Source: Psilocybe cubensis (taxonomy: Eukaryota). From it: DNA of 64,000 nt. The stretch is taken from positions 3,410,001-3,474,000 of the forward strand of contig CM038999.1 in NCBI GenBank assembly GCA_017499595.2, written 5' to 3'. The position numbers were made by a program, and so were the translations under genes. This document shows positions 1 to 30,302 of the stretch, piece after piece. Within the stretch, counting starts at the first letter, position 1. Each line of letters opens with the position of its first letter. The notes below the pieces were generated by a model. The model made no database searches. It was given only the letters and a program-made list of their open reading frames with translations, and had not been told where the DNA came from.

Positions 1-431
1 TGTTCAAGTGGTTTAATCGCTCTAATGATCAAAATTGTCTTCACTGGTGCGGTGACCTGCAACGCAGCAACCCTCAGTTAAATGAAATCCTCAGTCTAAA
101 TGGTTAGACTCCTTGCAGTTCGTCCCTATAAATTGTATCACATCGCCTCCTACGTACTTGGATTTGTATCTAAAGTTGGCCTTGTGGTTGTTCGCTTGTT
201 GACACTTGCACACCAATTGAATCTTCTTTTTCAAAAGTAACGTTGTTTGGGCATGCCAGTGCGAAGAACAGGCTGCGCAATATCTTGAAGAAGCCGTTCT
301 CCGTTTTGTCATTATGATTTATGAAGAGACGTTTTGGATATAAAGGTGCACACTTTGATTTCTAGTTCAATATTCCTCGACCACACCTGATCGGTGTCCC
401 TTGTTTTTTGTTGGCATTTTTTGTGATTTTG

Positions 432-714
432 ATGGCCAATTTTCCTGTACCAGTGGGAGGCATAGTATACCCATCGGACTTTGTGCCTTCGCTTGTTTTC
501 ATTGCACTTTATGCCTTTTTGCTCCCTCTTATGTTATACCGAATGCTTAACAGGAGGTCTCGGACAATACTGCTGATAGCAGCGTCTTTCAGCTGCGTGG
601 AGCGGTAGGAGATGTCTTGACCTAACAGCTAGAAAATAACTGACACTCTGTAATGATCCAGAATGGCCGTATTCGTCATACGGGCAATACAGTCGCGCAA
701 TGAGGCGCAACGTT
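432..714 (+). pseudogene. 5' part of a multi-pass membrane protein gene (possibly RTA1-like) interrupted by the transposon
   Basis: ATG at 432, hydrophobic exon 1 (432-604), GT-AG intron 605-661, then exon 2 (MAVFVIRAIQSRNEAQR) cut at 714. The frame resumes at 16080 (FRVGLVRYTQVTLSMGY). Confidence 0.8.
708..714. other. Left target-site duplication CAACGTT (GCAACGTT if 8 bp)
   Basis: The same sequence follows the right TIR at 16073-16079 (16072-16079 if 8 bp). Removing the element and one copy restores the host reading frame. Confidence 0.9.
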
Positions 715-1018
715 CACATAAGACAGTTTATTTATAACGTACATTACCTAAGATTTAATAATAAGGATATTACGTGAGACACGGTGGATTTACTCCCGCT
801 ACCTAATTAGGAGATTAGCGTGATGTACGTGTGATTTATCCTGGCAAATCATAGCGTACATGACGTGCCATTTAGCACTAAATGGAGCCGCCGGGTGGCA
901 TGCGGGATCCGCGTGTCGGGCTGCACGGGAAAAACACGGGCCGCAAATGAACCGGACGGGTCCATCTACATCCCGTGTATTGCAAGCAGACGGATCCGTT
1001 TTGACCCGTGTTGTGCTG
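715..1018 (+). repeat. Left terminal inverted repeat (304 bp)
   Basis: CACATAAGACAG...TTGTGCTG is the reverse complement of 15769-16072. One mismatch was seen (895 vs 15892). Confidence 0.95.
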
Positions 1019-1159
1019 AGACGGGTCCATTCATCCACCCGCTTCTGTATTCCGACAAATATCCGCCTTGAAGAATCATACATCGGATGACCGTTAATAT
1101 ATGTAATAAGGTGTATAGATTATACTGGCAGCACATTCCTTTCCACATACCCTGATAGC

Positions 1160-2439
1160 ATGGATTATGCCTTTGAGCTAACCCAATCCCTCTCAAACTA
1201 CATGAAGGCACAAATAGCTAGTCGTCTTTGGCATGCAGAACTGCCTAATCAAATCCGGGAAAACTTCAGTGCTGAGACCATGTTTGAGTGCAATCTAGCT
1301 GTGGAGGTGATTTTGCAGGCATTTGAAAATCAAGGTATGCAATCAATAAGCTTTGAAAATTGAGATTAAATAATGTGTGAATGGCAGAATATACGACGTG
1401 GGATGCAGAAGAATATTTGACTCATCTCAGTGCACGTTGCACGGGTCAGAATTTTACCGTTGAGGCTCGCCTGAAAGACAAGTTTTCTCCAGTGCATTCC
1501 GCGTTACAGTACCAAACCCTGCCCGGAACTGTGGTCGATAGTGCAGGCAACATATTGGTGTAGTACCTGCCAGGTATTTTGTCAGAGACAAGGGTGGTGA
1601 GTTTTAGAAACAGACCAATTAATTCATATATTATGCTTTCTAAAGAGTAACAGGAGAGTGTGTGGAATTCATTACGGGATATTGAAACAATGATTCACAA
1701 GGCGGTACCTTTGGCCACAAGCTGGAGGGTCAATGACAGTTACTTTCAACATGAGCCAGGTTGGGTTCAACCTGGAAATATTAACTTCTCCCCGGCATGG
1801 TTTCAGCAAGGCCATGAGGTGAGAAACTTGTATGCTAATTATTATACTGCCTCATATTTTCCTCAGACGTCCAACCCGCTTGAGGTCTCCTTGGACTTGT
1901 GTAATCCAATTGGACAGGAGTTTATACGAGACACGACGACATCTTCGGCTTTGCTGGGAGCCATCTTGAGCATTATACATCCCGAGCAGTACCGGGCGGG
2001 AATGAAATTTCTTCAACGGCTTGCTGCGGAACCGGAGCTTGTCCATAAGGCTGAAATATTGAAGCAAATTCTCACAATTTGGAGTTCGCCCTTTGGAGTC
2101 ATGACCGTGATCAGCAACCGAGATACACCATACCATCGGGATAATGGGTCGTGCTACTCATGGTACGATTTTTTGATGCCACTTGGGAAGGGTAAACACG
2201 GACGGCTTGAGCTTCCGGGCCTTGGACTTCGGTACAAGTATGATCCCATGACCCTTGTTGCAATTACCGGCAGGTTGCTTCAACACGGCGCGGTGTGCGA
2301 TGGAGACAGGGCAGTCATAGTCTATTACATGCGTAGGACTGTATTTGAAGAGCTGGGAGTCCAAGAGGCGGGATGGTCTACTACGTACGATCTTTTTGCA
2401 AATTTACCGGCCACCAACGCTTTTGATTTTGAAATATGA
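1160..2439 (+). pseudogene. TET/JBP-family 2-oxoglutarate/Fe(II) dioxygenase with an in-frame stop
   Basis: Predicted exons 1160-1334, 1388-1596, 1654-1818 and 1867-2439. HxD motif TPYHRD (2134-2142), distal His in LLQHG, and Arg in DRAVIVYY. TAG at 1561-1563 in GNILV*YLPGIL. Linkage to a KDZ transposase matches known fungal TET/JBP genes. Confidence 0.85.
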
Positions 2440-2533
2440 TCAGTTTTTGACTTGGAAGTTGGGTTTGGGGAAGATTTTTTTATATTTCCAAACCAAAACA
2501 GTACGAAAGCTACAGCACAACCAGAATTCTCTG

Positions 2534-2802
2534 TCCCAGGGTGTTTCCGACGCGTCCGCGCTGAGCTCTTCCAAGGTTACCGGAATCATCGGACTCCGCC
2601 GTCGTATTACCGGCGGAAAAGGCATCATCCGCCTCCTCTTCGATGTCCTGTGCGAGAGGTGGGCAACTAAGATTCCTCATCCCAGGGTGTTTCCGACACG
2701 TCCTCGCTAAGCTCTTCCGAGTTACCGGAAGCATCTGACTCCTCCGTCGTATCACCGGCGGAAGACTCCTCATCCGCCTCCTCTTCAAAGTCCTGTGCGA
2801 GA
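2534..2802. repeat. Imperfect direct duplication (~123 bp x2) of the 3' end of the 4291-2667 gene
   Basis: 2534-2657 and 2680-2802 both read TCCCAGGGTGTTTCCGAC...GTCCTGTGCGAGA, with scattered substitutions and an indel. Confidence 0.85.
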
Positions 2803-4291
2803 TGCTCTAAAAACGTAGCTGGTGTAGAGGATTCAGTGGTATCGGACGTACTATCAATATCATCCTCTTCTCCCGGGAAAACAGGTCTTGACCTTGCGTT
2901 AAAAAGGAAGGCATTGCTGGTGTGTGCATTTGACGGAGGGCTGACGGAACCGGGCGTAGGCAGAGTATCTGTTGGGAGATGAATATTTGCAGTGTTGGAG
3001 GACGGCGAATGATACCAGAGTGGATGAAAAGGTAGTTCCTTGACGGCAATAAAAGAATAAAAAATGTCGTTGATGTAAAATGAAGCGACTTTGAGCTTTG
3101 AGACCTCGAAGGACCGGGCTTGAGCCGTTATAGCGCCCCAACTGTCAGGAGAAGGGTGAACGGGATGCTGAAATTTGTATTTGGCTGAAAGCCCCTTGCC
3201 GTTAGAGAACGGGAGCTCCTTAGAGTCAATCCACATCTTCTCCAATACAGAATATCTGCCCAAGGCAGCCGAAGAAGTAGTCACTGCTTTATGGGCATTC
3301 TTCATTTTGTCCGCCACATTCCGGCGCAGGTGAGCCAACTCCCTCATTACGCCCGTTAGGATAGGCTGACCGCAGCGGGGACAGTAGGGCGGTCTGTGGT
3401 CAGAAATTGCAATTGGGGATGTTTCATCCCGCGTGTTTGCAACACGGGTCGGCGGATTGGGTTTCCCCGTGGGCGGTGAAAACGCGGAGCCGTGCTTTCC
3501 CGTCAACGCGGATCCGTGCTTCCCCGAGGTGGGGACGGATGTCCGTTCAGCCGCCTTTCCCTTGCCCTTGGGATTGTTTTCTTGATTTCTTGGAGGCCCA
3601 GAGGTGGATGAACTTGCGCCCTCCTTAGCTTCTTTCCTCTGATTATTTAGCCGGAGTACCTCTTGTTGGTATTCAGGCAGAACCACCTGGTGGGAAGGAC
3701 GCAAATCAGATATAATCCACAGCAATAAAAAAACATACCTTGTTCCAAAATTCTCTTGCTTGCGATTCAACGGTAACAAAGGCAACTTGCCACTCATCGC
3801 CTTCAGCAAATCCGTCCCTCCACCAATATCCCCAGCTCTTGGTCTGATTTAAAATTTCATCATCTTCCCATGCTGACCAGCTTTGATTTAGAGATTCAAA
3901 TAGAACAGCTCGATGGTGGAGAGTTCGGTTCAAAACGGCATGTACGCTCTGATTGAGAATTTCTGATATAAAAAATGGAATATCGACTTGGAATCCATTG
4001 ACATAGCAGTATCCGAGTACTCTCAGCAGTATAGCCTATCGAGCAGTTCTCAATGCAAGATATAATAGTTCAAAATTACTGTCTTACCACCTCTAGGTCA
4101 AGCAAATACATCCATTTTTGGCGACGCACGGAGGAAACAGAGTCTCCGTTTGCAATGAACAAACGGTATCCGGCACGGATCCGTGCACCACAAATATGGA
4201 CATGAACTTTGGCCAGAGCACGTCGCTCATCATAGGTAAGGAGATGATGTTTGTCCTCGACAGGAGGTTTAAAAAGCCGCGGTAAGTGCAT
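2667..4291 (-). CDS. Transposon cargo protein of unknown function (Trp-rich helical N-terminus, CPRC motif, acidic tail)
   Basis: Three-exon model, approximately 4291-4088, 4035-3739 and 3686-2667, with GT-AG introns and no stop seen. The start codon is uncertain. Confidence 0.65.
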
Positions 4292-4335
4292 GAATTCAAC
4301 AAGATGAGATACAACAAGAATGTTCAAAGAACTGG

Positions 4336-7300
4336 TTAATCTGTAATTATAAATCTCCACACGGACGGATACTCCGGGTTAATTTGACGGAAGACCTTAT
4401 CCGCGGCCCGCCCCAGATCATTCCACATGGCAATCTGCTTTTGAGCATTTGCCCTGTGACCAACTAACCTGTCAGGAACAAAATCATGCCGTGCACGCCA
4501 TGTCTTTGCCATATACACATAAAATCTGACAGTCCATTCCATTTCCTTTTTTGTCAAAGCCAGCTCCTCTTGCCATCTATTTCTCTGAGCTCGCGCGCGG
4601 AGCCAGTTTAGCCTGAAGACTAAGAAACCTTTGAGAAAAAAATTAGAAATACAAATGGCAGTACTCACACTCATTAACGTATAATTGATTATCATTGTCC
4701 AGGCCCTGACGGGATCTCCAAATCCAACTTAGACGGTCCGAGCTTCCTCCGCAAATGTTCGGATCCGACACGGCATTACTATGCTTGCAATCATGGACTT
4801 GCAGAATGGGATATTGTTTCCGAATATTATCCTCGTCTCGCACGCCAGCAGATAAATAGATCATCTTCTGACGGTTTGTGTTGTAGAGTCGCCGGTGCAA
4901 TTTCCAGGAAGCATTCAAAAGCTTGACGCCATCCCAAGCACGAGTCCCCATATAGACGGAGTCGGCGGTCCGAACCTGATATTTATACTGCCAAGAAAGC
5001 TGGATCAAGGCTGACCGGACCGCTTCCAGACAGTCCTCTGCGTGGCCATGTCTTATTTGAAGTTCAAGTTTGCGAAGCCCTTTTAAAATGAGGTTTGTTC
5101 CCGCGTCAAGGCCGTCAAAGAAATCTTGTTTGACGGTGGAGGGAAACGGAAGCGGCTGTCGTTCCGGATCCGCGCGGGTAATGTTGACATTTCCAAGATC
5201 AGGATCGTCGTTGTCACTGACTTCATAGTCAAGTATGGGAGCGATGTCCCCTTGAATATCCTCCAAGACATCTTCGCCCATGAAGGTCATAGCGGATCGA
5301 CAGAAGGCTTCAACGCGGGTCCGCATGGAGCGACGTTTATTGACCAAGTCAAGTTTCTGCGCGGTGGAAGGATGCTTTCCGAGCTTTCTGACATGGTCCC
5401 TGAGCTCCAATCTAAAAACATGTTAAATTCTGTAGGATGCAATTGAAATAATCGTACTGCGCTTGCTCCAGTTTTAAGCCGGATGATATCCATGCTGCCT
5501 TTCCAGTAGCACCATTAGATGTAAGTTCCATATTTGAAAGATGCAATTCAATTTCTTGGCGTCCAGCAGCCGTTTTCACTTTGCTTGCCATTACCTTGCC
5601 AACAGCGTCGGCCACACCTTGTTCTCGGTCCGCTTCTGCTTTTGAAATTTCATCTTCCCAAGTGTTGATGAGCCCGGAATCTTGTTGATCCGTGATACCC
5701 CTATAAAATTGGTCTGTGATTCCAGACTGTTCCCGTGCCCGTTTGAACTTTGCAGCAATTGTTGCAGCCATATTAATGGTCTTCTTCCAGTTGGAATCCC
5801 CCATGTGGTCGTCCAAAACCTCTGCTCGATGGGCAGTGGTAGCGGAACGTGTACTCCGGGATGTGTCATTTAACACGGACCACAACGGCTCCAGGATTTC
5901 TCCGTCAATGATTCCCACACCCGGGACATAGGTGGATGCATAATTGTAAAGACATTCCGTCTTGTGCCCGTGGACGTGAAATAAACCAATTGCAAAAATC
6001 ATTTTAACAGAAGGTGGCCAATGCATTTTTGTGGACTCTGAGAGACGCCTTGCCAAGTTAACGCAATATTGACAGTTTATATCGTAGATTTCCAAATGTT
6101 TTGTGATTCCCTGTGTGTTGGTAGTTTCCCTGGCCTGAGTCAAAGACCAATCCATGTGCATCTGCTTTTCACCTTTGTCAAAATCAACAACGCTGGATGG
6201 ACAGAAGCATCCGTGCCTAGCGCAAGCGTGTGCCCCAATTCCACGTACTCTCTTACCCGGGCTGACTCTGTTTTCAGCTTTCTGGGCGTGGTAGTTATGA
6301 CATGTTTGTTCCTGATATTTTTTGACACGGAAAGTAAGCATCCGCCGTAGAAGATTTTGACACGGAGCGTAAGCATCCGCCGTGAAAGATAAATCATGGT
6401 AGATAACGCACCCGTTTATAACGTGGAGCAAGAGAAATTGCTTCCTTAATGTGCTCCTTGTAAGGGCCCGGAGCAGTCATGTATCCTTCTCCAACGCTCA
6501 ACCAAACATTGTCTCCCTCGTTTTTCTGATTGAGGTGATCTGCTTTGAAATTACCATCTGCAACATAACTACATATGTACAGATTGCTACTTGCTGTTAA
6601 TTGCAGTCACCCTTGAAGAATAACTAAAACTTGCCTATCAGCATCATCAATCCAGGTATCAGGTAGGTTTATTCCAGGCTGTGGACAGGCGGGGCAGAAT
6701 AAGGCCAACTTCCCTCTCCTATCTTCAACTTCGGGATGATCCTCGGTCCGCGTCATTTGTGGTACAGGCGGACCATCTAATCCGCCGTGTCCCAGAGACG
6801 GGTCCGTTGACATTCCGACTTCTTGAGACGGACTATCAGATCCGCCGTCAATTGGATTAGATACATTAATACCCATCCTCTCTGGTGATGAATCATGGCA
6901 ATGACGATAGTAAGGGACCACCACTTCTCTTGTATGCCCTTCTCCGTATTGTCGTCTCAGGACAAGGTCCCTGTATTCTCTACTAAGCCTTCTCAATTCA
7001 CGATAGCGGTTCAGCACCTTTTTTGGAAACGCTGGCGAAGTCAGTCTTCGCAACTTTTGGTAATACTGATAAGCCGACGTTTTGCACTCGAGGTTGTCCA
7101 TCCGAAAGTCCTCAAGGACCTCAACTGTGAACACAGTTTGAACGTTTTCAAAGCTGGCTGCAAATAATCCCATCTCCAGATACTGTAAATCGATAGACGG
7201 AAGGCGGACGGACCGGCATGTGCATGTTCGCACGGGCAGATAATGGACTCTGGAGGTGTGCACAATTGCCTTGAAAGGAATTCCATTGTTGTCTGCTGCC

Positions 7301-8219
7301 TTTGGACGAGGTTGGTCCAGATAGGTTGTATCGACTTCCTCGAATAGATCATCGTCTTCATCGTCTCCATCGTCCAGCTCAACCAAATGGGGTACCTCCG
7401 GGTCCGCCAGAAGCTGAGCCGTAAAGGATTCTTGGTCATTGCTCGCAGGAAGCGGATCCAGGTCCAATCCGTGTTCATCTTCAAAGACGGGCGAATTGTT
7501 TCCGCCGTGCCCATGACTCCCGGATGAATTGTTTCCGCCGTCCCATCCTAGGTGGCTCGGATCCGTGGGATAAGGACAACGTTTCCCATTATGACCCAAA
7601 TACAACTTGACACCCACTTCCCACAGAGCTCCCGGACGGAAATATAGACCCGTCCACTTCTCAACGCGGTGGAAAGGTGTAAATTGATGGTTTCTTCGCA
7701 GGCATTCAGAACACAAAATTCTAGAGCCAAAGCATTGGCAACATCTCCACACTCCAGACATTCCTTGACATTGCTGACACTGTCCATTCAGATCCGGATC
7801 CGGGGCTTCTCCTCCAATCATTGTTCCAAGATACACCTCTCGTTTCGGGAGCCATTCCCTCAGGTAATCATTTTGAGACTGGATAGGTAAAGTCATCCTG
7901 ATCATTCTACTGAAAACATGTTAAAACATACCTTTCCTCCCGTTCTGTCGTCATCTAGCTGTCTCAGGTTATCAAGTACCTGCTGATCAGTTAGATCTCC
8001 CGGATAATGAGGTATTTCTTCTTCCAGAATGTTGTGTTCATGGTTTTGGAAAGAGTAAGTCGTTGTTTGAGGGAGGTTTGTTGATGATGATTCTGCAGGA
8101 AGTTTGTGGATCCTCGGCCGCCCTCTCTTTCGTTTCTTGGCCCCACTAGACCAGGAGGCCTCCCGAACATTGGGAAACTCCTCATCCGATCCCCTATCAG
8201 GTACTTTCTTGAAGCCCAT
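4336..8219 (-). CDS. KDZ-family transposase with an N-terminal Cys cluster and CxC2 domain
   Basis: Six-exon model. Motifs: KRGRPR (AT-hook-like), CQQC/CCQC/CSEC..H, HRVEKWTG, CTC, CPACPQPGINLP, DGNFK, CARHGCF, GEKQ, YDINCQY, HVHGH and DGEILEPLW. One intron needs a GC donor (~6634). No stop or frameshift was seen. Confidence 0.9.
6320..6389. repeat. 35-bp tandem duplication within a transposase intron
   Basis: TTTTGACACGGAAAGTAAGCATCCGCCGTAGAAGA followed by TTTTGACACGGAGCGTAAGCATCCGCCGTGAAAGA, inside intron 6312-6411. Confidence 0.9.
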
Positions 8220-9099
8220 GGATGTTGGAAACAAAGAGTCTGACAGCCTGTGAGTGCAGATCTAAATGTAGTATAACATGTTCATTTCTGTAGATAAATT
8301 TCCCTCAATTATGCCGTTTTAAAGAGGAGAAAAATAGCTTTCATATGACTTATCTTGCAGCATATTTGGATGAGTGAGTGAAATGTTATGAACAAAACTT
8401 AATCCAGAGATGCACAAAATGGACGTGATCCCATCATAAATGTACAATATGATGCAGAACGACCCTTTCAGAACCACACTTTGGAGTGTTTTTGAAATAT
8501 CTTTTCACTGGCTGGCCCCTCATTCCTCCGGCATATATCATATGAAAGATATTTTTAATAGCTACCGAATGACATTTTTTGTAGAATGTGAATCCTTGTA
8601 TTTAAGGAGATATTCTCAATATACTAGAAAATGTGTCAAAATGAGCTCACTGGGATCATTATATTTTTTGAAAAAAAATTATGCATTTGAATACCTCTCA
8701 TGGTCTCTGAGATAACTGCCGTTTTGGGTTTCACAAGTTTTGGGTGAGAAGACGTGAATTTGCATTTTGTGTTTCTGTATCTTTACAGCCATCTGACAAG
8801 AATTTAAAACCTTGTAAAATTATCTTTATATAAAGCGCTAAATGTTTACAAAATTCCATGTTTATTGATTGAATGCAGAGGGAACTATTGCAAAATCATG
8901 AGGTCAATGTATGTGACAGCGACCAGCATGCTTTGATCATCGTGGCCGACGATGAAGCGGGATTACCTGATTGGGAAAAATATGACATCACATCATTTAT
9001 TTAGTATGATCGGAAGCTTATTTTATCTCCGTATGACGTGAGATTTGACCAGATCACACAGATACTCATCGATAAGCTACTTGTTACATCACTGCAATT

Positions 9100-11410
9100 A
9101 TGCCCACCAATGCATCCCCCGACGCGGATCCGCTTCCTTCTACCGCAAATGCCACAACCCACAACGGACCCAGAAACGGACAGACGGCGGAGGGTGACTT
9201 TCCGCCGGAAGAATCAAATATTTGGACAACAAAGGAAATGCGCGTGTTGAAAAAGCATGTACAGCCCTACAAAGATACATCAAAGTCATCCAAAGCAGAC
9301 TACATACAGAACACTGTCATACCTGAGCTGCAAGCTACATGGGATCACAGATACTCTAGACGTGCTAGGAAGGAAGATAAGCAACTACACAAAGAATGGA
9401 AGGTGAAGAAGCATGTGAGCTCGTTGTTTCTTTGAAAATTTTGTTACACACATAAACCATCACAATAGCGAATATTTAATTGGTTTAGAAACCATGCGTC
9501 AAATCGAATTGGTGTAAAATTGGAAGGATTGAACTCCCGTATAACCTTTCAGACGGTATTCCGTGAGGAGAAGTTGGCAGAGATTGACTCCGAGGTTGCG
9601 CTTCTATCAGGGAATGCTGCTCGTGGAAGTAAAGATTGGATGAAGTTTTATCAACAAGGACGTAAGCAGGTTGAGGCCAGATTGACTCAGGAGGAGCGGG
9701 ACAGGTTCATGGAGATCCTCGAGGAATGGAATAAGAAAGGTGTTTCAAAATCAATGAAGGCAAAGTGAGTCGGTGGAACTTGTTTCCGCCGTCAATCTGA
9801 CATCTGCAGGACTGCTGCCAGGCAAGGCAGAAAAATACTTTGACAAATGGAGAAACTTAAGTGGCAGAGAATGGGTATGAGGTCCATTACCTTTGAGGGG
9901 CATTATGATATTGAGGGTAAAATCGAATACTCAATGTAAGTGTTAAACACGGCATGAACAAGTTCCGCCGTGAATGCTTACGGCGGAAACTTTATCCGCC
10001 GTAAACACCCTACGGCGGATAAAGTTTCCGCCGTAAGCATTCGCGGCGGAATAATTTGGCCCGTATTAATGTTGACTGATGGGCATTGAAGGACCCAGAC
10101 AAGCGATCTAGCACTCGACGATGTCAGAATTCCTTCCTTTGGGCAACTCTTTCCATCCGAGTTGGCCGCTTTTCGCAGAGCGTTTGTTCAATACCTCGTC
10201 CACATTTCAGAAATAGAGAAGGGTGTGGCCAATCCAGCACTGCCAGATGCATCGTTTCATGAAAAATCCCTCAAGTTTAGCAGCAATGGATTTCCAATAG
10301 TACCTAGTCCTATCTATGGCTCAACTGGGAAAGAAGTCGCTTATGCACAAAAGTCAATTATTAGAATTTACATGAACAAGGTTTATGGTGTGTAATTTGT
10401 CTATGTCCTCAACAAACTTGCTAACTATGTATACAGCTTTAGCCAAGGACAGGCCTGGTTCAAGTGTTCCTTGGGATGCTCTTGAAAGGCGTTCTGCAGA
10501 AATGATTGATCCAGAGTATTGGCCAAGTTCAATCCCCGTGACGGATCCAAGCCGGCTCCGCCTGGAGTCAACCTCTGCAATTCTCAAGCTATGGAGGGAC
10601 CGTCAAGCCCAAGGAGACATCCCCTTTAAATTTTCAAAGGTTTTTGGAAATGGCTATGATATTATGGAACCTCTCTATCCGTCCAACTTGTTTGACGGCC
10701 TAGAAGCCCACCCGATACCTCCACCTCCTGCAGCAATAACCAAACGTTGCCTGAGGCAAAAAGCTATACGACTTCAAACCCAATCTTCAAGCAACTCTGA
10801 ATCATCCAATCTGTCAGAGTTTGATAATGGACGGGGCAGTCCGGCATCCGCGATGCCACGCACTACTGCCAGATTTGAAGTCACACCAGAGACGGATGAG
10901 ACTCCTACCGACGCACCTTCAAGATCTAGCGAGCCACCCTCTCTACCAAGTAGATCCAGCCCAACAATTGTCAATCCATCATCCAGCCCAACTCCAGAGG
11001 TTGAGGAGGCGCCTCCCAAGCCAGCTAGAAAGATTATGCCAAGAAAAAGAACAAAGCCATATGTCGGAACGGCGGAAATGGACGGACCCGATGAAGAGAG
11101 TTCTGTACCGGCCCCAGTTAAGCCAAAACCAACTAGAAGGATTCAACCTAGGAAAAAAACAAAGCCCTACTCAGATCCACTTGACACAGTGGAAGAAAGT
11201 GGAGTTCAGACAGGAACAACCCAAGACACGGATAATACACGGGCCGGCAGGGACGTGACTTGTGATGCCTTTGTGGAGACAGTAACAAGTCCAGATACGG
11301 ATGAAACACGGGCCCGCAGGAATGTGACTTCGGATGCCTTAGCACTTCAGGAAGCAAGTCTGCTTGTTGTAGCAGGTAAAAGACAAAGAAAAAAAACTTT
11401 GAAAGCCTAG
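9100..11410 (+). pseudogene. Transposon cargo gene, probable nuclear helical/DNA-binding protein, with an in-frame stop
   Basis: Predicted exons 9100-9414, 9469-9764, 9810-9935, 10092-10387 and 10437-11410. Contains RIFNWFRNH and a basic C-terminus (KRQRKK). TGA at 9841-9843 in RKIL*QMEK. Confidence 0.7.
9963..10051. repeat. Nested inverted repeat: 41-bp arms with a 7-nt loop, inside an intron
   Basis: 9963-10003 and 10011-10051 are reverse complements with one mismatch. They lie in intron 9936-10091. Confidence 0.95.
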
Positions 11411-11674
11411 CTGCTGAAGTAGATTCATAATACCTATTGAATGTGATGCTTTTCATTCTTATCTTGATGTTTCTCAAACATGTTTTCACACAAAATCAAA
11501 ACAGAAAGCGGGTTCATTAAAAATCATCAAGTGCTACTTTTTGGGAGAGATATAAAACAGATGAGCACATGAGAGTAAAAACTATATACAGTCCAAATAT
11601 TAAAAATTGTACAATGCAATCTATGAGACAAGGCAAAAAAGGAGACCAAAAAAAGTTACAAGATTTGAAATACA

Positions 11675-14193
11675 CTACTTTTTTTGGGCCTTGGGTTTTT
11701 TGGGTGAGCGCGATGCTTCAGCCAGAGTCGTTTCCGCCTTTCGCTTCCGTCCAGCCCTTGTCTTTGTGGCTATGTTCGACGCGGGCAGCGTGGACGCCAC
11801 AATCTCAACATCCTCCTCCACAATTTCAACCTCGTCGCTGTCCGAGGGATCAGACAACTCCGATGAGTGTCCATTCCCGGATGGCCCAGCCTTGGAGGAT
11901 GGCTTAGCCTTTGACAATGGCTTAGCCTTTGAGGATGGGCCGGCCTTTGACGATGACGATGGCGCGGCCTTTGACGATGGTGCACCCTTTGACAACGGTG
12001 CGGCCTTTGACGTCGAACTTCGAGGACGTGGAGCTGGGAGAGGGGGTGGTGGAGACAGGGAAAGGACGGGTGGTACCGGTGGGAGCGAGGGTCGGCCAGC
12101 TGGGGGGGGCGAAGGCGCTTCTGGAGTCGAACCGGGCAAGAATAGCGCTGTTGGTGGCGCAGACACGGCAGGGAAGACGGGTGCGGGTGGAGGTGGGGGT
12201 GGGGAAGGGAGGACAGGTGCTGGCGGTGGTGGAGGAGGGGAAGGGAGAATGGGTGCTGCTGGAGGTGGAGGTAGGGAAGGGAGGGGTGCTGGCGGTGGTG
12301 GTGGGCTGGGGGATTGTGGCGCAGAGGTGGGTTCACGGGTCCGCGACGGACCCGATTCTTGTTCGACCTCCGTCTTGGAGGGTTCTGCTGCCTGTTTGGG
12401 GGCGGGATTCCTTTGTTCATCCTGCTCCAGCAAAACCCCGACCACGTACTGAACGTCCTGGATCGCCTGCTTGATGTTGTTGAACATCGTGACGGAAAGC
12501 GAAGTGTTTCCTGCCACTTGTTCTATTGCCGTGGTCCACTCGGCCTTCAGCTCTTGGAAGCTGTCCTCGACGGTCTTCATCCTCTTCTCCACCGCCAAGT
12601 TTGTCTCGGCGAACGTTGCAATCCGTGCGTTTATCGCCGTCATGGACGCGGAAAGGCCATCCATCCGTTCCATCAGTCGGCCTTGTCGCTCAAACAGCTG
12701 CACAAGCAGCTCTCCCACATCCTCGGGGAACGACCCTTCCCCGGCCTTCCCCTTCGCCGGAACATCCTCTCCCTCCTCCAACTTCAACACCTCCCCGTAA
12801 CTTCCCAGCGGCGTCGAGAGGTTGAATTGCCCGGCGACAGTGTTGCGTCCCGGGTAGAAACGTCCCGGGTAGAAACTGCAGTGAATCTTGCGAGACTTGC
12901 AAGACTCGCAAGATTGGTGCTTTACGGGGACGAGAGGCTCAGTGCCTGTCTCTCCCTTGACATGGCACGGCACCTTGAATTTGGTGCATCCTGTGCACCT
13001 TTCCACCATATCCACCATCCCCTCCGGCACCTGGCGCGCTTTCTCGGATCTCGACCGCGCCTTCCTGATGGGGGAGATATTGTCCTGGTTGGCGTCCTTC
13101 TTTGCAGACCGGGTGAGCATCTTCCGGGTGGGGGTGGTAGGCGGGGCCTCTTGGTCATCGCCTTCGTCGTCCTCGTCGACGTCGGCGTCCGCGTCTTCGT
13201 CCGTGTGGCTTCCTATGATTGCTTTGCTCCTGAACTTCCCCTGCTTGGACTTCGCCAATCTTTCCAGCTTCTCCCTGTACGCTGGGTGACCAGGCATGTT
13301 GGAGGCGGTGATGTGGGGAATGATTTCCCCCTTCTTTGTCCGTGGGCCCCTGTAGTCCGCTGGAGCTAACTGAATGGTGGGCGTCTGTCACGGGTCCGTC
13401 TTCTACCGGGGGTTCGACTGCCTTGCCCTTGCCCTTCTCGGCCCGTCTCTTCTCCGTCTCCTCCTTGTTCCTCTCCTCGTCTGTCTCCTGCTCCTGCTCC
13501 TGCTCCCTCTTCCTCCTCTCCTCCGCCTTCTGCCTCTCCTGCTCCCTGGTCTTCCTCTCCTGCTCCCTCTTCCTCCTCTCCTCCTTCCTCCTCTCCTCCA
13601 CCTTCTGCTTCTCTTCCTCCCTCTTCCTCCTCTCCTCCTCCCTCTGCCTCTCCTCCTCCTCCTCCCTCTGCCTCTCCTCTTCCTCCTCCCTCTTCTTCTT
13701 CTCCTCCCTCTTCCTCCTCTCCTCCACCCTCTGCCTCTCCTCCTCCTCTTGCTCCTCCTTCTCCCTCCTCTTCTCTTGCTCTTCCTCCTCCCTCCTCTTC
13801 CTCTGTGCCTCCTGGCCTTGCTGGTATGCCTTGAAATTTGCGACTTGATGATGCAAATTTGCCCAGTCGACCTCGAACCTTCCTACCTGCTTGCCGTCCT
13901 TGCCCTGGCTGGTCTTGTATGAATACACGACAGGGCTTGCGACATAATCCACGAGGCGGAAGTTGGCCGCGTCCCTGACGTGTTCTTGACACAGTGGAAC
14001 CTATTTGGATGAATTTTTTTTGTTCAGTAAGTCTTATGCTCAAGGGATATCGATTACTCACCAAGTCCCTGTAGAGCTGCTCCAACTGAGCGTTGAACGC
14101 GCTTTCGCCATTGCGGTAGCACTCTGTAAAGGTTTTTTCCCAGTCAGCAAGGCGTTGGGCGAAGGTGGCGGTGGTGGAAGATGAAGAGGCCAT
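11675..14193 (-). CDS. Transposon cargo protein with an E/R/K-rich helix, Zn2Cys6-type cluster, coiled coil, Pro-rich region and NLS-like tail
   Basis: C-x2-C-x6-C-x18-C-x2-C-x6-C at 12997-12878. Intron ~14061-14001. The junction at ~13406-13370 needs a short 37-nt intron or else is a frameshift. Ends PKKPKAQKK. Confidence 0.75.
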
Positions 14194-14676
14194 TGGGAAA
14201 GCGTTTTTTTTGGGGGGGAAGACGCGTTAATGGGTGAGGCACGGTAGAACGTGGGGTGGTGATCGTGGTTGGAGTTAGTCTAAAAAAAGTCTAAAAAAAA
14301 GCGGTCCCGCAAAACAAAACCATACACAAACATGTACAATCTGAGTCATGTGATTTCTTCACCAGATCCAGTTTGTGCAAAAGTTGCTAAGTTCGATACA
14401 CGGGTGAATCTATTTCCGTGTCATGGAGAATCCTCGGATAGTATTGTATTCCGTGAGATATATAAACAAGCCCACCCAGTTGCACTTTCTGGACTGTATG
14501 TCCTCCTACAACTTTATTCCCACCTCTAGCAAAAATTCCCCCATTGACTACACCAGTCTCAACAATCTTACCAGGCTTCTCAAAAAACTGAAGGAACCTC
14601 CTCCCGTAAAACCTATAAAATGTAAGACTAATTGCATTAATTCAAGTAAATTTAAATTGATTTCTGAGCATCAGCA

Positions 14677-15675
14677 ATGTCTTCAAATATTAGCAACTCT
14701 AAGGAAAGCAAACGCACAGCAAGGACGGATGACCTGGCTCCGCCGCCAATGCCAGTCATTCCAGATAACCTGGCTCCACCCCCTATGCCTGTTATTCCAG
14801 CTAACCTGGCTCCTCCCCCTATGCCAGTCATTTCATCTAACCTGGCTCCGCCCCCTATGCCAGTCATCCGGAAAGACCTGGCTCCGCCGCCAATGCCAGT
14901 AATTCCAGCTAACCTGGCTCCACCCCCTATGCCTGTTATTCCAGCTAACCTGGCTCCGCCCCCTATGCCAGTCATCCGGAAAGACCTGGCTCCGCCGCCA
15001 ATGCCAGTAATTCCAGCTAGCCTGGCTCCACCCCCTATGCCAGTCATTCCACCTACCCTGGATCCTCCCCCTATGCCTGTTATTCCAGATACCCTGGATC
15101 CTCCACCTATGCCTGTCATCCGGGATGATGCGGCTCCGCCGTTGATGGCAGCACATGTTTCATACACGTCTGTCGTCGACAAAATCATTATGGACTCTCG
15201 TCCAGCTATTTCCTCTGAGAGGAAGCAAGGTCGCTATTCTCCACCCCCTGAAGCATGCCACCTGCTCCTTCAAAACCCTTATTTTTGAACCTACGGCAGG
15301 TTTGATCCCATGGGCGGCTACCCCGGTTCGCCTCCCACCCAGTCTGACATTGAGTTCGAGAATGTAACAGATCAGACGGCGTATTTTAACCCTCCTTTTC
15401 TATATGTATATACTCAGATATTACCAAGCACTAGATACTGACAACTATTTTAGAATTATACCGAGCAGCAGCTACGGGCAACATACGACCAAATAATTGA
15501 CAGTTCCGTCGGCGACAGTAGTTATGACGGAAAGGTTACAACGTTCAAGAACCTCCGGCTGCATCAGCTGCAGTCAGAGATTCTGACTTATAATGCGCTG
15601 GAGGAAATTGACGCTGGGCTGGCAGGGATTGAATCGAGTTTGGAAAAGCATTTGTATACCGGTAGAGATGAATAA
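14677..15675 (+). pseudogene. Transposon cargo gene for a proline-repeat protein, with an in-frame stop
   Basis: TGA at 15286-15288 (NPYF*TYGRFDP). The frame stays open beyond it, through an intron ~15406-15452, to TAA at 15673-15675. Confidence 0.65.
14731..15126 (+). repeat. Coding minisatellite, 11 x 36 bp (xLAPPPMPVIxx)
   Basis: Eleven 12-aa units counted in ORF 14677..15288. Confidence 0.95.
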
Positions 15676-15768
15676 ATTATTTTTGGAGCCCTTGTGCTCA
15701 TTGACTTGCAATACACCATAAATAACCCTCCCTCTCTGGAAAGACACGGGTCAAATGGGTCTGTCTGA

Positions 15769-16072
15769 CAGCACAACACGGGTCAAAACGGATCCGTCTG
15801 CTTGCAATACACGGGATGTAGATGGACCCGTCCGGTTCATTTGCGGCCCGTGTTTTTCCCGTGCAGCCCGACACGCGGATCCCGCATGCCATCCGGCGGC
15901 TCCATTTAGTGCTAAATGGCACGTCATGTACGCTATGATTTGCCAGGATAAATCACACGTACATCACGCTAATCTCCTAATTAGGTAGCGGGAGTAAATC
16001 CACCGTGTCTCACGTAATATCCTTATTATTAAATCTTAGGTAATGTACGTTATAAATAAACTGTCTTATGTG
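15769..16072 (-). repeat. Right terminal inverted repeat (304 bp)
   Basis: Reverse complement of 715-1018. Ends CTGTCTTATGTG and is followed by CAACGTT. Confidence 0.95.
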
Positions 16073-16079
16073 CAACGTT

Positions 16080-17056
16080 TCCGTGTTGGCCTTGTGAGAT
16101 ACACACAGGTCACATTATCCATGGGATACCTCGGCCTTCTGCATGACGTGATCGCCATCCTTCGATGTGTGCTGGTGAACCCGACATATGGCTCGATCAT
16201 GTACTACCAATCGCCTGCCGCGCAAAACAAGGAAGGCTTCTACGGCGCACCAGCCGCCGATGTACCCGACAGAAAACGATTACGATCTCAGTGTCGGAAG
16301 ATGATGGGCGCTTTGCAAATGCAGTTATTTATAGGCGGAATTGTGTTAGCAGCATACGGCAACTCACTGTATAGTCAAGACTTCGATGATCAGCACAAAG
16401 CAGATGTCACAGCAGTCCTTAGGCAGGTCTTCTAGTACCACACTCAAGTCACGATCTGAATGAATGTTTTGCTAATTGCAATTCATTTAATTGCAGAACC
16501 GTCAGCTCAGCGATTGCGCTGGCAGTGTCCGTGTCTGTTCTCTTGATCACTTGATGGAGTGTATCCACGTTCCGTACCAACACCAAAAGTTCTGCTGGAA
16601 TCATAGCTGCTATAGCCTGTTTGCTAGTAAGCATGTTGAAATTTACGCAAGAAATTATACGGTGCTCACCAGTTATCATAGTTGGTGGTTGCTGTTTATT
16701 GTCTGAGCGTAATGGGACACAAGACTACATCTCTTGAAGCACACATGGCGGTAAACGAAGGCAAAGAAAAGGCGACATTTTACATCTTTCACATTCTTCC
16801 AGAGTGGCTCTGCACACTCATATTTTTTACGGTTGATATTAGAAAAAAATTCGGTACTGGACCTATGGGTGATACGCGGCTGACAGACATGACGCCAGAA
16901 CAGCATAAAAAATGGGTTACCAAGCAGACCAAAAAGGAACAGAGGCGCAGGGCAAAGTTAGGGCAGTTTGTAAGCGATGGTATGGAGTCGGAGATACCAC
17001 TGCAGCAAAATTTTGGAGGTACTGGAGATGGACATTCATACCAGGTGCTACAGTGA
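16080..17056 (+). pseudogene. 3' part of the interrupted membrane-protein gene
   Basis: Predicted exons 16080-16422, 16497-16626 and 16682-17056, with hydrophobic segments and KATFYIFHILPEWL. Under a GC-AG intron model there is a TGA at 16552-16554. Confidence 0.75.
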
Positions 17057-17326
17057 TGCAAGATAGCGACTATCGATGATTGATGTGGCTCCAACTTAAT
17101 TATGCCCAGCTAGTTTCAGAGTTGCATAATTGCCATCTACTGAATAGACCCCTGATGACAATGCGAGGAACATCAGCCGAGGTGCTCGATCAAGTCTCTG
17201 ACTCACTGCGTACTCAAACGTGCATGACTTTTCATCTCATTAAAATTTATAGACGCTGGTGCACGGTATTATTCCAACCATGATGGATTGACGCTCAATA
17301 TTCGTCATAAACCACAATTTACATAC

Positions 17327-18298
17327 CTACACCTTTGTCACCTCCTCCGTATGTTCCCAAAGTTTCTGCCGCAGCTCATCATTGCCATAATATCCCGTCT
17401 TCCCAATATCCTCGCCTTTTTTACCTATCCTTGAGGTACCATTGAGAAGGCCAGACCATAGGTATTCTGCACATTGATTTTGGGTCACAGTGAACGGTTT
17501 TGCGATGAGGTTGGCCACAGGTGCAACAGCTCGTAGCCATGGCATATGTGCTGAGCTCATGATATTGGTGAGCACAGCACCAGGGAATGAATGGGAGAAA
17601 ATGATCCCAGGATTTTGCTGTTGGAAGGACTGAAAAAAGAGGCAGGTTAATTTGGGCATTTTTTAACAGGCACTGTAGGGGTTCACCTCCACCATCAAAT
17701 CGTTGTACGTTGTTGCCGCTTCGGTAGCAGTGCGGAAAGAATAACCTTTCTTCAACCCAAGATTATTAGATTCAATCTTGCCGCCGCGACCAGCAGCCAA
17801 CACGGACATAACCCTTGCATCTTCTCCCTCCTCATTTGCCTTCTTCAAAGCATAAAGTAACTCGTCAATAAATTTCCATCGAGCATAGTAATGCACTGCG
17901 AGCGTCTTGTCAATTCCCTCCAATGTCTCATCCCGTCCTGAAGTAGAGAAAAAGCCAGGACTCAGAATGAGAAAATTGATCTTGGGGTATTTCTCCAAAA
18001 TTGTCTGAGACGCTATGTGAACATTCTTCATGAGAGTCACATCGCAGTGGACAAATTTGTGGCTCCATGTCTCAGAGCCGGTGGCTTTGGGGAAATGAGA
18101 TATGATATCCTTTGCTGCGGCTTCATTGCGTCCAACAATAACGATATGAGCCTTGCCATCTCTCCACCGTGCAAATGTTTCGGCCATTCCCTGCCCAATT
18201 CCAGAGGTTCCACCAATGAACACTGCGACTGGAGTCCCAAAGAGTTTTTCCACGATGGCTGCATTGTTGTTATCCAAGGCGGCAAGTACAGGAGCCAT
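17327..18298 (-). CDS. Short-chain dehydrogenase/reductase-like NAD(P)-binding protein (copy 1)
   Basis: AVFIGGTSGIG Rossmann motif, ETLEGIDKTLAVHYYARW. Exons 18298-17687 and 17629-17327. Confidence 0.9.
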
Positions 18299-20042
18299 GT
18301 TTCTGAAAACAGCAGCCGTCGCAAAGATTTTTGGGAACCTGTTTAACCAGAGGAAAGACATGACCTTTTATCTTTACTGTATTGGCTTGGTATTTGAACT
18401 CATACTTGCCAGTGTTAACGCTGGCGCTGAAGTGCCGAGAGTGTGACGCAAGCGTCTGGTGCAACGGCCGTCGATTAAGAGCGGTACCATTGCGCTGTTC
18501 GTTTGATTGCAAAAACACAGTTAGTGCGGTTGTGAACCTTCACATTTTTTGAGAGATATTTGAGATAGGTAAAAAAGAGTCTGTGTGTTGTCCTGTATTC
18601 TGAAAGGAAGTCTGAGAGGGTCAAGTTAGGAAAGGTTAGGAATTTCCGGAGCTTACCGAGAAAACAACCTCTCCCTTGAGGTCAAGGGAGTGGCTGTGTT
18701 GCCGAGGAAGCAATCACCATAACGTGATGGCGGTGTGACCTAGTGAAAGAGGTATATAACAAAGACATTAGGACTACTTATTGAGGATCCTTAATAAATG
18801 CTACATAGTTTAGTATCCAGAATATATCAAGCTGTGTTAGATATGTCTACACTAGGTCCTTCCTCTCTTTTGAGATGTCTCCCCACAGATCAGTAATGGT
18901 GACATTAGTGTGACCATCAGTGTTTGCCGCCCCGGCAACGCAGCCACTGCCTTGGCCGTTGTTTTTCTCGGTAAGCGCCGGTGGGGGTTTACCGATCATA
19001 GGTATCTGCCCGGCAGAACCCGAGCTTGCCCTTTTCAAAATTTTCACCATAAAACCTTGGATGGATTTGACTTCAAATTATATATTCAAGCATGTAGAAA
19101 GCGTATATACACATCAGTGCCTTTAAATTTTGAGTAAGTGCAATCAATTTAGTAGAATTCGTCTGGATGTTATCTGCCACGCTCAATGTTATCCGCCAGC
19201 CGAGGTGCCGTAACACAGCCACATTTGCGCACTTGCGCATTCAATTCACGCTCGACGGGCATTCTGGTTTGGTTTTTTGAGGCTGAGGCTCTTCGGGTGA
19301 TATTATGAATTATATGTACATTACATGATACCCAGGCAAAAATTATTATAGAAACTCAGAGTACAGACAAACATATTTATGTAGACTACTTCTTGGACGC
19401 GCGTCAGCGCGAAATTTTTGAAAATTAGCCTCTCGTTTCACACGGTATTTAACAAAATTTGTATTTGTGACAATCCGTACATATTGTCAAGCACTTTCAA
19501 CTCATTTCTCTTCAAAATTTTGACAGAAATAAAGCATTGCGAGTCTCTCTCTTTTTGTCTCCATTTTTTGGTCATTTCCCGTTTGGGACACCCACTCCTA
19601 TGAACGGAAAACCCCGGTGGGTGCCCCCTGACCGTGATATATCATGTTTCTAGTAAGCCGAACGTAAGCGCCAGTGAGTGCTTCAAAGTGAAGGCTACGT
19701 TGAACAAGTTTTCGAAATGGGTTATATATCTGCTCACCATAGCGGCATGAATGCTTATAAGTATCTGGAACTTTCGTGAATTTTTATAACGAAATACCCT
19801 CTAACCGCCAACAGGATGATTGGAAAGTTAATCCTCTGTTTTGGGTCCGACAAACTGTTCCCACCTACCGTGCACTTTGCTTACAATTGTTTTATTGTTA
19901 TACAGAGTAAAAATCGACCAGATTTATTCAATAAGTAAGGTAGGTGTACAAGATAGATGAAAGACCTGGAATCCATAGAATTTGTCGATATAAAAGTAGA
20001 AATAACTCAGAGCTATGAGAAGTCCCAGCCACCATGATGCTT

Positions 20043-20834
20043 TCATTGTCGGCCGACTTCAATGAATGATACTCTTTTGGTTTCGCATTCCTCTTTGGGA
20101 AGGCGAGCAATGAGATCTTCTTTCTTCGACTGGTTTTCACCAACATTGATCACCAAGTCAGGATGAATGCCAAAGGTTTGGTTTTGAAAGATGTCGACAC
20201 TAGTCTCAAACGCAGAGTTATTGTGCATGCAGTCCAAACTGCGCATACGGGAAATTCGGCCCCTCTTTGAGTTTTTAGCTGCATGGAGGCTCCGTTTGCG
20301 AGTGCGAATGACACTGCGGGTTCGTATATCGGTAGCATCATACTGCCACTCTTCGGTGAGGCGAACTTGATTCGAGGTCACATAGGCACTATATTCCGGG
20401 CCACAGGAATTGTGCACAGAGCTCTCCGTGAGTGTATCGACATTCGCATGGGTTGATACAGATGCTAAGGATTTGGGAACTTTGACCACGTCGCTGTTGG
20501 TGTCGTCAAACAAAGTCGCTGCGGTTCTTCGCCTGCAGTCTAGAGAACGTAGAAGTTTTCGTGCACCAATGTGTCTGATGCTGTCCATTTTACCGCCTTT
20601 TTCCTGTATTTTTTCACATATAACTTGAGAGCCGTCGATATGAGCAACAGAGTTGCTGTCAACAGACGGTATCGGACAACCCTCACTGACGACCTCGCCG
20701 TTGACGATAGCAGCGCTGAGAATGTCTTTGGTCAGTAGATTGTTGGGTTGAAATGTTTTGGCTGTGGCTACTGACTGCGCTTCTTGAACACCCTTAACCA
20801 CCATATCATCCTTTTTCTGCGGGTGAGTTAGCAT
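20043..20834 (-). CDS. Hypothetical protein or exon (263-aa ORF)
   Basis: Long ATG-initiated ORF only, with no recognisable domain. Confidence 0.35.
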   Translation of the reverse strand: MLTHPQKKDDMVVKGVQEAQSVATAKTFQPNNLLTKDILSAAIVNGEVVSEGCPIPSVDSNSVAHIDGSQVICEKIQEKGGKMDSIRHIGARKLLRSLDCRRRTAATLFDDTNSDVVKVPKSLASVSTHANVDTLTESSVHNSCGPEYSAYVTSNQVRLTEEWQYDATDIRTRSVIRTRKRSLHAAKNSKRGRISRMRSLDCMHNNSAFETSVDIFQNQTFGIHPDLVINVGENQSKKEDLIARLPKEECETKRVSFIEVGRQ

Positions 20835-29279: not shown

Positions 29280-30302
29280 GTGACCGAGTATTTGTCACTC
29301 GTCTTCTTTGTTACCAAACTCCCTTTTATCTGTACCAGAATCAATTGTACTATGTATCCCTTCTTCGTTCATCGATGTCACGATTTTTCTTTTTCACTTA
29401 TGACTACGAGTATGGAGATTTCCACAGCTTGATGGTACTTCACATTTTACTAGTTTAGTTTTTTTGTACGGAATTTCATGTAGTAGATACGAACATTTAT
29501 GAATACACAATGTATTGATCAATTTTAATATGTACGTAGAGATCGAAATATTCGTCCAGTCTCAGAACTTGAGATTTCACGTTAGCGGCTGGACAACAAA
29601 ACACAATATACTGTAATCATTCGTCGTTACATCCTTTAAAACGTTTGGATGGGCCTTGATGAGGAGAGAAAACTCATCCTCTCGAAACTCGTCTTTGATT
29701 TGGGATGATTGTGCCAGGTGCGACGGGGGCACTTGCACCCGTACCAGTGGAGTTCTCAACCTTTATTCCACCACAGCGTCCAAGTATGATTTAGAGCTTC
29801 GATATGTATTAACCTTGGAGTCTTGTCCATGAGCCGTTTACGCATCCTTTACTGTATCCCGGTCGAGGTCGGAGTTCAAATTGATGATTGCCGTGAGCAG
29901 TGACCACCCGTGAAAACTTCCACTTTCAGATGCGGCTTTTCGGCATGCTCAATATAGGTCCACGGAGTTTGCTAATTGCGCGAATGAGTATTCGTTGACA
30001 TCGTTATTCATTCGCTCAAACCTGCAGCATCAACATGTGTATCACTGCAATGCCTACGTTATCAAATTCCTCGAATGAATAAGGGCAATTACAGTGTACG
30101 CTCAAGACCTGCTTCAACGGCCGGGGTGCCAGGCACATGCGTCACTGCATCGGCTCCTGACAGTGTGTTGATAAAAATGAGCTTTCCACTTGCTTTTGTT
30201 CAACGCTCATCCTTCTATCCTTTCACTAGCTTTCCGAAACTCACAGCTAATTCCCTTGCATTACTCGTTGCATTCACTTCCGTGTACCTTCGCGGCCAAT
30301 CA

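Follow-up and report, generated by a model that had tools for sequence, protein, structure and literature searches.

TET-carrying (TET+) Kyakuja (KDZ) DNA transposons of Agaricomycotina were reportedly described by Iyer et al. in 2014, and the TnpA protein of the Spm/En transposons promotes demethylation. The TET+ Kyakuja are in print with 7-bp target-site duplications (TSDs), 5'-CA..TG-3' ends, and an AG-type TET (Kojima 2025, PMC12730594), in a paper whose main text cites VANDAL solely as an introductory example and leaves open the selective benefit of a TET to its own transposon family. The DNA considered here is a 64-kb stretch from Psilocybe cubensis (64,000 nucleotides; assembly GCA_017499595.2, contig CM038999.1, positions 3,410,001 to 3,474,000), referred to as the window, and its positions 715 to 16072 are a complete copy of a Kyakuja (KDZ) DNA transposon. 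The core finding, a Kyakuja that carries TET, is already in print, and the link between TET and KDZ transposons in basidiomycetes that an earlier note on this DNA had given as established is borne out both by that paper and by the anatomy of the element. The Psilocybe element also contains dispersed CGG-doublet words and a gene for an atypical Cys6/coiled-coil protein, and it offers a testable candidate for the missing layer of target specificity: the Cys6 protein may read the arrays of the word TCCGCCGT and regulate the family, a reading to which a probability of about 0.35 is assigned.

The element is a cut-and-paste transposon with five genes, encoding TET, an open reading frame (ORF) of unknown function (P0003), the transposase, accessory gene 2 (acc2), and the lineage-restricted Cys6/coiled-coil protein (Table 1). 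Its terminal inverted repeats (TIRs) are 304 nt long and 100% complementary, its termini read CAC..GTG and thus agree with the 5'-CA..TG-3' ends of Kyakuja, and the same 7-bp TSD, CAACGTT, lies on both sides, again as in Kyakuja. Raw DNA reads of run X13 were mapped on window positions 1 to 17500 at a likeness of at least 85%. Reads with heterogeneous loose ends were found at 714/715 (191 reads) and behind 16072 (172 reads), and such differing flanks at the exact element ends indicate many insertion sites. The TIR-bounded element claimed in the earlier note is thus a real unit, with breakpoints where the arms end. The family, its other copies viewed through protein records and raw reads, numbers about 18 copy-equivalents (mean X13 depth of ~525 in 26 element bins and ~30 in 3 flank bins, a ratio of ~17.6), and the family is young, with copies that are 97 to 99% alike in the X13 reads. 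Runs X10 to X12, which carry other organism labels, gave pieces that were mostly ~96 to 100% identical, two of them near 90%, and no diverged family.

The dioxygenase gene is an intact part of this unit. Its ORF at 1651-2439 matched Pfam Tet_JBP at 2e-18 and aligned with residues 200-419 of CcTet, the Coprinopsis enzyme of solved structure (7vpn), at 5e-27. The oxygenase domain, an HxD motif (HRD), and the distal His of a later HG are all present between the element ends, as expected of a TET+ transposon. Compared by tblastn with the annotated protein P0020 (373 aa), the gene has 4 mismatches and zero frameshifts, so the TET/JBP assignment made from the letters alone was correct; a search for longer homologous proteins of TET found none. 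In 27 X13 reads, position 1056 is joined to 2054 with 997 bp skipped, which indicates that at least one copy lacks most of the 5' part of TET; this TET-less deletion derivative could act as a natural control. The transposase, whose limits and introns were read by eye from the sequence, combines a KDZ domain with the associated CxC2 cysteine cluster, the domain pairing of Kyakuja.

The word TCCGCCGT/ACGGCGGA has 16 exact sites in the window, all of them within the element, versus 1.37 expected, and 0 of 100 shuffles reached that number. Counted as clusters more than 100 bp apart, the sites in the element give 9; in 300 dinucleotide shuffles the mean was 0.25 and the highest count was 2. Since the word had been picked with the sequence in view, a post hoc control was added, in which the best two-CpG octamer was taken from each of three 15.4-kb chunks of the remaining window; these gave 4, 5, and 6 clusters. 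The motif enrichment that the earlier note had claimed is therefore real, at about 2-fold over the fair control and not 60-fold. Variants of TCCGCCGT with one mismatch have at most 4 sites each versus the 16 exact ones, and its 7-mer core TCCGCCG is found at 24 sites within the element and at 4 in the rest of the window. Two further words are confined to the element, namely, CGGGTCC (10 sites inside and 0 outside) and CGGATCCG (9 inside and 0 outside), the latter in the TIRs as well as internally. The motifs consist of CGG doublets, and seven adjacent TCCGCCG pairs are inverted, with starts 14 to 18 bp apart. One explanation of this pattern is that the motifs are sites of host Zn2Cys6 or other host transcription factors, used as promoters or enhancers. 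The large fungal Zn2Cys6 family typically targets CGG pairs (PMC6265462), and the arrays lie in introns and upstream regions of the element genes. On the other side, the 48.6 kb of host DNA that the window includes has none of the 16 exact sites, and a candidate CGG reader is encoded by the element itself; host factors are judged a very unlikely explanation.

Both strands carry sites, which are spread over introns, noncoding DNA, and the exons of three genes. Three of the other modeled introns are 49 to 58 nt long, versus 327 nt for intron 2 of acc2 and ~112 nt for the motif-bearing intron of the transposase. The acc2 intron holds a palindrome with 41-nt arms that are 98% alike, and in the X13 reads some copies lack 63 bp of this palindromic array. 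The transposase intron holds a 35-bp tandem repeat, and 133 reads add 25 letters with TCCGCCGT at 6331, which indicates a third motif unit in most other copies. The unit number of the 36-bp array near the right TIR likewise differs among copies, as judged from read joints. It is possible, then, that the words have no sequence-specific function and were spread by tandem and palindromic duplication together with a D/H-G-G coding constraint, the enrichment being historical in a very young family. Consistent with this, 7 of the 16 TCCGCCGT sites lie in three local duplications (6341/6376, 7501/7534, and 9964-10027), unit numbers vary among copies, 4 of the 16 sites fall in the same frame of transposase linkers and code D/H-G-G there, and the high likeness of the copies leaves little time for selection to show. 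Counting against such an origin are the 9 clusters that are left after 100-bp collapsing, the spread of sites over both strands and several classes of DNA, and the analogous but different words in other lineages (see below), and it is judged unlikely.

The candidate reader is encoded between acc2 and the right TIR. The family model of the Cys6 protein is 838 aa long (P0004; tblastn, alignment of 15 rows), and the window copy of the gene is JR316_0002619 (P0012). At least 10 near-identical Cys6 proteins are present under 10 different P. cubensis protein records. Outside these copies, P. cubensis has a paralogue of 206 aa with just one triad (P0009, JR316_0012492), and Flammula alnicola has a 756-aa homologue (P0010) with 27% identity, in which the 18-residue linker and the overall architecture are kept. 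The columns C..C...K..C, a TP motif, and the ELLV start of the helix are invariant in 7 of 7 rows, and the first triad follows the pattern C-T-x-C-x-K-x-x-V-P-C. When the module profile was compared with the PDB, all 13 sequences at E values up to 10 were Zn2Cys6 proteins, the best being LAC9 at 0.016. In 3 of the 3 printed alignments (LAC9, Leu3, and Ppr1), the second triad of the Cys6 module falls on the canonical first and the first on the canonical second, and the module appears, as far as these borderline scores allow, to be circularly permuted. A basic residue at the expected place and a downstream helix are present as in Zn2Cys6 factors, and the invariant lysine is one that we take, from the pattern and the Gal4 numbering, to occupy the position of Gal4 Lys18. 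In Gal4, Lys18 is the sole side chain in contact with the bases of CGG, and a coiled coil further downstream mediates dimerization, as given in the Pho7 paper (PMC6265462). An AlphaFold2 model of a 246-aa piece of the Cys6 protein contains a helix at residues 125-227, with a block predicted local distance difference test (pLDDT) score of 86 to 92 over 131-220 and of 76 to 77 at the ends; the linker from module to helix is ~50 residues, and acidic stretches flank the module. Searched with the Cys6 region, the ESM Atlas returned nothing but unnamed Basidiomycota clusters (0.83). That there is a conserved but atypical protein of the Cys6/helix kind is solid.

These features suggest how the family might be regulated. 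The dispersed CGG-doublet words would be cis elements through which an element-encoded DNA-binding protein recognizes copies of its own family, with TCCGCCGT, often as inverted pairs 14 to 18 bp apart, concentrated in the two introns of unusual length and in stretches that code for linkers. The leading candidate for this reader in the Psilocybe family is the Cys6 protein, with its putative permuted Zn2Cys6-like module in which the CGG-contacting lysine would be kept. The long downstream helix could dimerize the protein, as in Gal4-type factors, and the flanking acidic stretches could activate transcription. The protein most likely would act in trans, from intact copies, as a sequence-specific activator or antisilencer, while the coexpressed TET would oxidize 5-methylcytosine (5mC). 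The idea is favored because the reading half of a Zn2Cys6-like module is kept, because the words are CGG pairs, and because TCCGCCG is absent from the TIRs.

Weighing against a Cys6 reader are weak domain statistics, a rare gene family, arrays elsewhere without a Cys6 gene, and two other candidate readers, and no result here links the Cys6 protein to the motif or to TET. Zn2Cys6 clusters have the spacing CX2CX6CX5-12CX2CX6-8C. The canonical pattern CX2CX6CX5-12CX2CX6-9C was absent from all six frames of the window, and the order of the half-modules appears not to be colinear with that of Zn2Cys6. The Pfam Zn_clus profile (PF00172) gave 12.6 bits on the window ORF, versus a cutoff of 21 and over 14 of 39 profile positions, and stayed below the cutoff in all 3 of the P. 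cubensis proteins scanned (11.5 to 12.6 bits); P0009 gave 16.4 bits versus the same cutoff, and P0010 gave 21.7 bits in two stretches that each cover only profile positions 1-15. The PDB profile matches are borderline throughout (E values of 0.016 to 9.4), and AlphaFold modeled the module poorly (pLDDT of 55), with fold matches that are not significant. Among 1.84 billion representatives, an exhaustive HMMER search recovered only five proteins, namely, three close relatives or fragments from P. cubensis, P0009, and P0010, which makes this a very rare family. In the window copy itself, a private 41-nt deletion shifts the frame upstream of the module; 182 X13 reads carry 40 extra letters at 13377, and the annotated model bridges the gap with a 22-nt "intron." Three of the 10 near-identical copies (P0011, P0016, and P0019) have an Arg-to-Cys change one residue before the invariant lysine (CKSRK to CKSCK). 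The description of the protein as Zn2Cys6-type in the earlier note therefore stands in part: the protein is conserved, its PDB matches are all of that class, and the lysine is kept, but the spacing, the order, the Pfam score, and the frameshift in this copy speak otherwise. A separate Arg-to-Cys change was seen near the C terminus of P0018, and the Arg-to-Cys changes would fit C>T at CpG.

Related TET+ Kyakuja loci bear on the choice of reader. Scanning metagenomes with the TET alignment yielded 49 loci totaling 194 kb, most of them on short contigs. All three transposase ORFs have relatives beside TET in these loci, and TET followed by an opposite-strand transposase is the order in 13 of the 14 loci with any non-TET tblastn match; in the exception, L031, TET and the KDZ transposase are on the same strand. 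P0003 had no tblastn match in the 49 loci and no Pfam family at E values up to 10. The Cys6 gene also had no tblastn match in the 49 loci, mostly short contigs as they are, and no double CX2CX6C was seen there, a further point against it as a general reader. Only L030 reaches far enough to inform on the position of a Cys6 gene. At that position, L030 contains a pair of ORFs (19268-20470, minus strand) in which RCSLRKTKC precedes a coiled-coil-like stretch and then a basic tail; compared with Cys6 by hhalign, these ORFs gave probabilities of 1.6% and 0.8%, which is a lead only, and the contig ends before the 5' part. A second metagenome scan, with the Cys6 alignment, gave 249 pattern matches, none of which was confirmed.

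Three TET+ Kyakuja lineages in this set have dense two-CpG octamers of their own, which likewise tells against a role tied to the Cys6 gene. The clearest other family-specific word is the palindromic TCGGCCGA(G), with 11 to 18 sites in 8 clusters in L031 (6,432 bp) and 21 to 30 sites in 14 clusters in L033 (4,774 bp); in the same pair, CGGCCGAG has 18 sites in L031 (6.4 kb) and 30 in L033 (4.8 kb). In the second lineage, L034 and L036, CCCGTCGG forms 6 and 4 clusters, respectively, with 7 sites in L034, and in the third, L037 and L038, CGGACGTC and ACCGGACG form 6 clusters each. No word rose above the control level in six long loci (L030, L027, L045, L032, L025, and L023). Family-specific CpG-rich words thus seem to recur in TET+ Kyakuja without being universal and without being tied to a visible Cys6 gene. 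On the earlier note's point about enrichment in related elements lacking the Cys6 gene, dense CpG-rich words occur in loci where no Cys6 gene was seen, although the words differ and the contigs are short.

Because lineages without a visible Cys6 gene have words of their own, a shared reader, either the transposase or acc2, would be more parsimonious for the general phenomenon. The arrays would then be sites for the transposition machinery, bound by the CxC2 region of the KDZ transposase or by acc2 in the style of the second ORF of Harbinger or En/Spm, and the Cys6 protein would have another role or be a recent passenger. Dense octamers in TET+ Kyakuja loci that show only transposase and TET are consistent with this, as is the presence of CGGATCCG both in the TIRs and internally. 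The acc2 gene is a plausible partner. Its four-exon model has GT..AG introns and a single terminal stop, and it has tblastn matches behind the transposase in L030 (16243-18687) and L038 (~10326-10562), with order and strand kept. Its first exon has Myb/SANT-like look-alikes at 0.85, a lead only, and Nuwa Harbinger families pair their transposase with a Myb/SANT DNA-binding protein (Kojima 2025, PMC12730594). On the other side, acc2 matches no Pfam family, DNA binding by CxC2 is putative, and the six long loci mentioned above contain no enriched word. In addition, TCCGCCG is missing from both TIRs, where GGATCCG and CACGGG occur, which makes TCCGCCGT an unlikely end recognition site for the transposase. 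A role of the arrays in transposition is viewed as possible and as only slightly less probable than reading by the Cys6 protein.

The part of TET in such a system is a separate matter. The earlier note had proposed a full model in which a motif-bound Cys6 protein physically delivers TET to the copies of its family, so that demethylation is addressed by sequence. This model shares all the points in favor of a Cys6 reader, and in another copy the TET and Cys6 genes travel together on one contig, three gene numbers apart (JR316_0010379 and JR316_0010382). Both CpGs of the motif are methylatable, and the main text of Kojima 2025 (PMC12730594) makes the case that a TET works for the family that carries it. 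The same text notes, however, that oxidized methylcytosine in Coprinopsis and Laccaria covers retrotransposons as well and speculates that the TETs of Agaricomycotina act without target specificity, which also detracts from a family-specific reader in general. Contact between TET and the Cys6 protein is purely hypothetical, and most TET+ Kyakuja lineages appear to be without a Cys6 gene. CpG decay continues in the element, where the observed/expected CpG ratio is 0.79 versus 0.95 in the rest of the window. At 30 of the 36 best-supported positions where nearly all X13 reads disagree with the window, the window copy shows G>A or C>T, and an ancestral CpG underlies 15 of these 30. Depleted CpG and private transitions together indicate that the family bears the mark of CpG methylation, and the window copy looks like one undergoing methylation-driven decay despite its on-board TET. 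The step with the least support is that the reader recruits TET directly, and physical recruitment would be speculative; we consider it very improbable, and the full model of the earlier note is to be held in the same strong doubt. The broader picture, a self-addressing TET+ Kyakuja with its own CGG/CCG-pair address words, in which a permuted Zn2Cys6-like dimer activates the Psilocybe copies and focuses TET, seems quite unlikely as a whole.

If it were true, this system would be a fungal counterpart of VANC and TnpA with an eraser on board and would contain the first permuted binuclear zinc cluster. The candidate specificity layer consists of a defined domain of ~40 residues with a helix and an 8-bp word in defined arrangements, with ~18 natural copies whose unit numbers vary, and a Zn2Cys6-like module with swapped halves would be of structural interest. 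If binding fails, the element is a well-preserved member of a published transposon group.

TABLE 1 Features of the Psilocybe cubensis Kyakuja element (window positions)
Feature	Positions	Strand	Remarks
Left TSD, CAACGTT	708-714		Matches right copy
Left TIR	715-1018	+	Starts CAC; GGATCCG three times, CACGGG four times, zero TCCGCCG
TET/JBP dioxygenase gene	1160-2439	+	Four exons, intact, beside left TIR
ORF of unknown function, P0003	2667-3848	-	393 codons, acidic tail
Kyakuja/KDZ transposase gene	4076-8219	-	Several exons; limits approximate, start ATG at 8219
Conserved C-terminal transposase ORF	4643-5422	-	Relatives in metagenome loci
KDZ ORF of transposase	5412-6476	-	Pfam KDZ 1.2e-37, 130 bits, cutoff 26.6
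Probable transposase intron	6311-6422	-	~112 nt; two tandem motif units, sites 6341 and 6376
CxC2 ORF of transposase	6607-7920	-	Pfam CxC2 2.1e-20
acc2	9100-11410	+	626 codons, open; exons 9100-9414, 9469-9764, 10092-10387, 10437-11410
Long intron 2 of acc2	9765-10091	+	327 nt; 7 of 24 TCCGCCG cores, palindromic array 9963-10051
Cys6/coiled-coil gene	11678-14193	-	Exon 1 14193-14059, intron, coding from 14000 to stop
Predicted long helix	12410-12718	-	~100 residues; possible coiled-coil dimerization region
Cys6 module, CX2CX6C-X18-CX2CX6C	12878-12997	-	In ORF 11675-13387 (-)
Private 41-nt deletion in Cys6 gene	13377-13378	-	P0012 lacks 21 residues there
36-bp tandem array	14731-15141		~11 units, 4 TCCGCCG cores; between Cys6 gene start and right TIR
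Right TIR	15769-16072	-	Complement of left arm
Right TSD, CAACGTT	16073-16079		7 bases directly behind right end

Some further observations concern acc2 and the surrounding DNA. Earlier acc2 models with a mini-exon at 9810-9935 contained stops and were dropped, and a homeodomain assignment from a WF.N pattern across the exon 1/2 junction was rejected, the single exons being without Pfam support. About 60 residues of acc2 exon 2 (9469-9768, plus strand) show weak similarity (E values of 0.026 to 0.06) to a PDB entry, the avirulence protein AvrSr35 of Puccinia graminis, which could reflect a transposon-related origin of part of AvrSr35 or chance. Host genes near the element include a short-chain dehydrogenase at 29988-30956 (plus strand; adh_short, 1.8e-10) and a member of the fungal protein kinase family at 36081-37037 (minus strand; Pkinase_fungal, 4.7e-13). 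The stretch from 44000 to 54000 has an odd composition, with GC content of up to 0.59 and AT skew of up to 0.51; it contains an ORF at 50088-52850 (minus strand) that is open for 920 codons and without a Pfam family, and long frames overlap there on both strands.

Compared with the described TET+ Kyakuja of Agaricomycotina, the Psilocybe family shares the KDZ transposase with CxC2, an AG-type TET near CcTet, 7-bp TSDs, CA..TG ends, many copies, and the presumed role of countering 5mC silencing. Kyakuja-1_LB and Kyakuja-2_LB are without TIRs (Kojima 2025, PMC12730594), whereas the Psilocybe family has perfect 304-bp arms. It adds P0003, acc2, the Cys6 gene, and the dispersed CGG-doublet arrays, none of which, acc2 included, is mentioned in the main text of that paper, the supplements of which may list a Psilocybe family. 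A layer of motif and reader is likewise not described for TET+ Kyakuja in that main text, and an earlier mention elsewhere is possible.

The Cys6 protein resembles the Zn2Cys6 factors Gal4, Ppr1, Leu3, Put3, Hap1, and LAC9 in its two CX2CX6C triads, basic residues with a lysine at the base contact position, downstream helix, acidic stretches, and candidate CGG-pair targets. It differs from them in that its triads appear swapped, the linker between the triads is 18 residues long versus 5 to 12, the linker to the helix is ~50 residues, the P. cubensis proteins score below the Pfam cutoff, and the protein is encoded by a transposon, its zinc and DNA binding being putative. A literature search found no paper on a permuted Zn2Cys6 cluster or on a transposon-encoded Zn2Cys6 protein in Agaricomycetes.

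Two plant systems are closest in logic. Spm/En TnpA is derived from a transposase, whereas the Cys6 protein is without transposase similarity; as with TnpA, an element-encoded regulator of repeated short sites that activates cognate copies (bioRxiv 10.64898/2026.08.24.746577) is what is proposed for the Cys6 protein. Homology between VANC and the Cys6 protein is not expected. VANDAL has no demethylase, unlike the Psilocybe element, which encodes the eraser TET and the arrays of which are partly intronic and partly coding, with a function that is inferred. Like the VANC system of Arabidopsis VANDAL (PMC5735166, PMC10398659), the Psilocybe element pairs a transposon accessory protein with motif arrays in its own DNA, for which a family-specific loss of silencing is proposed.

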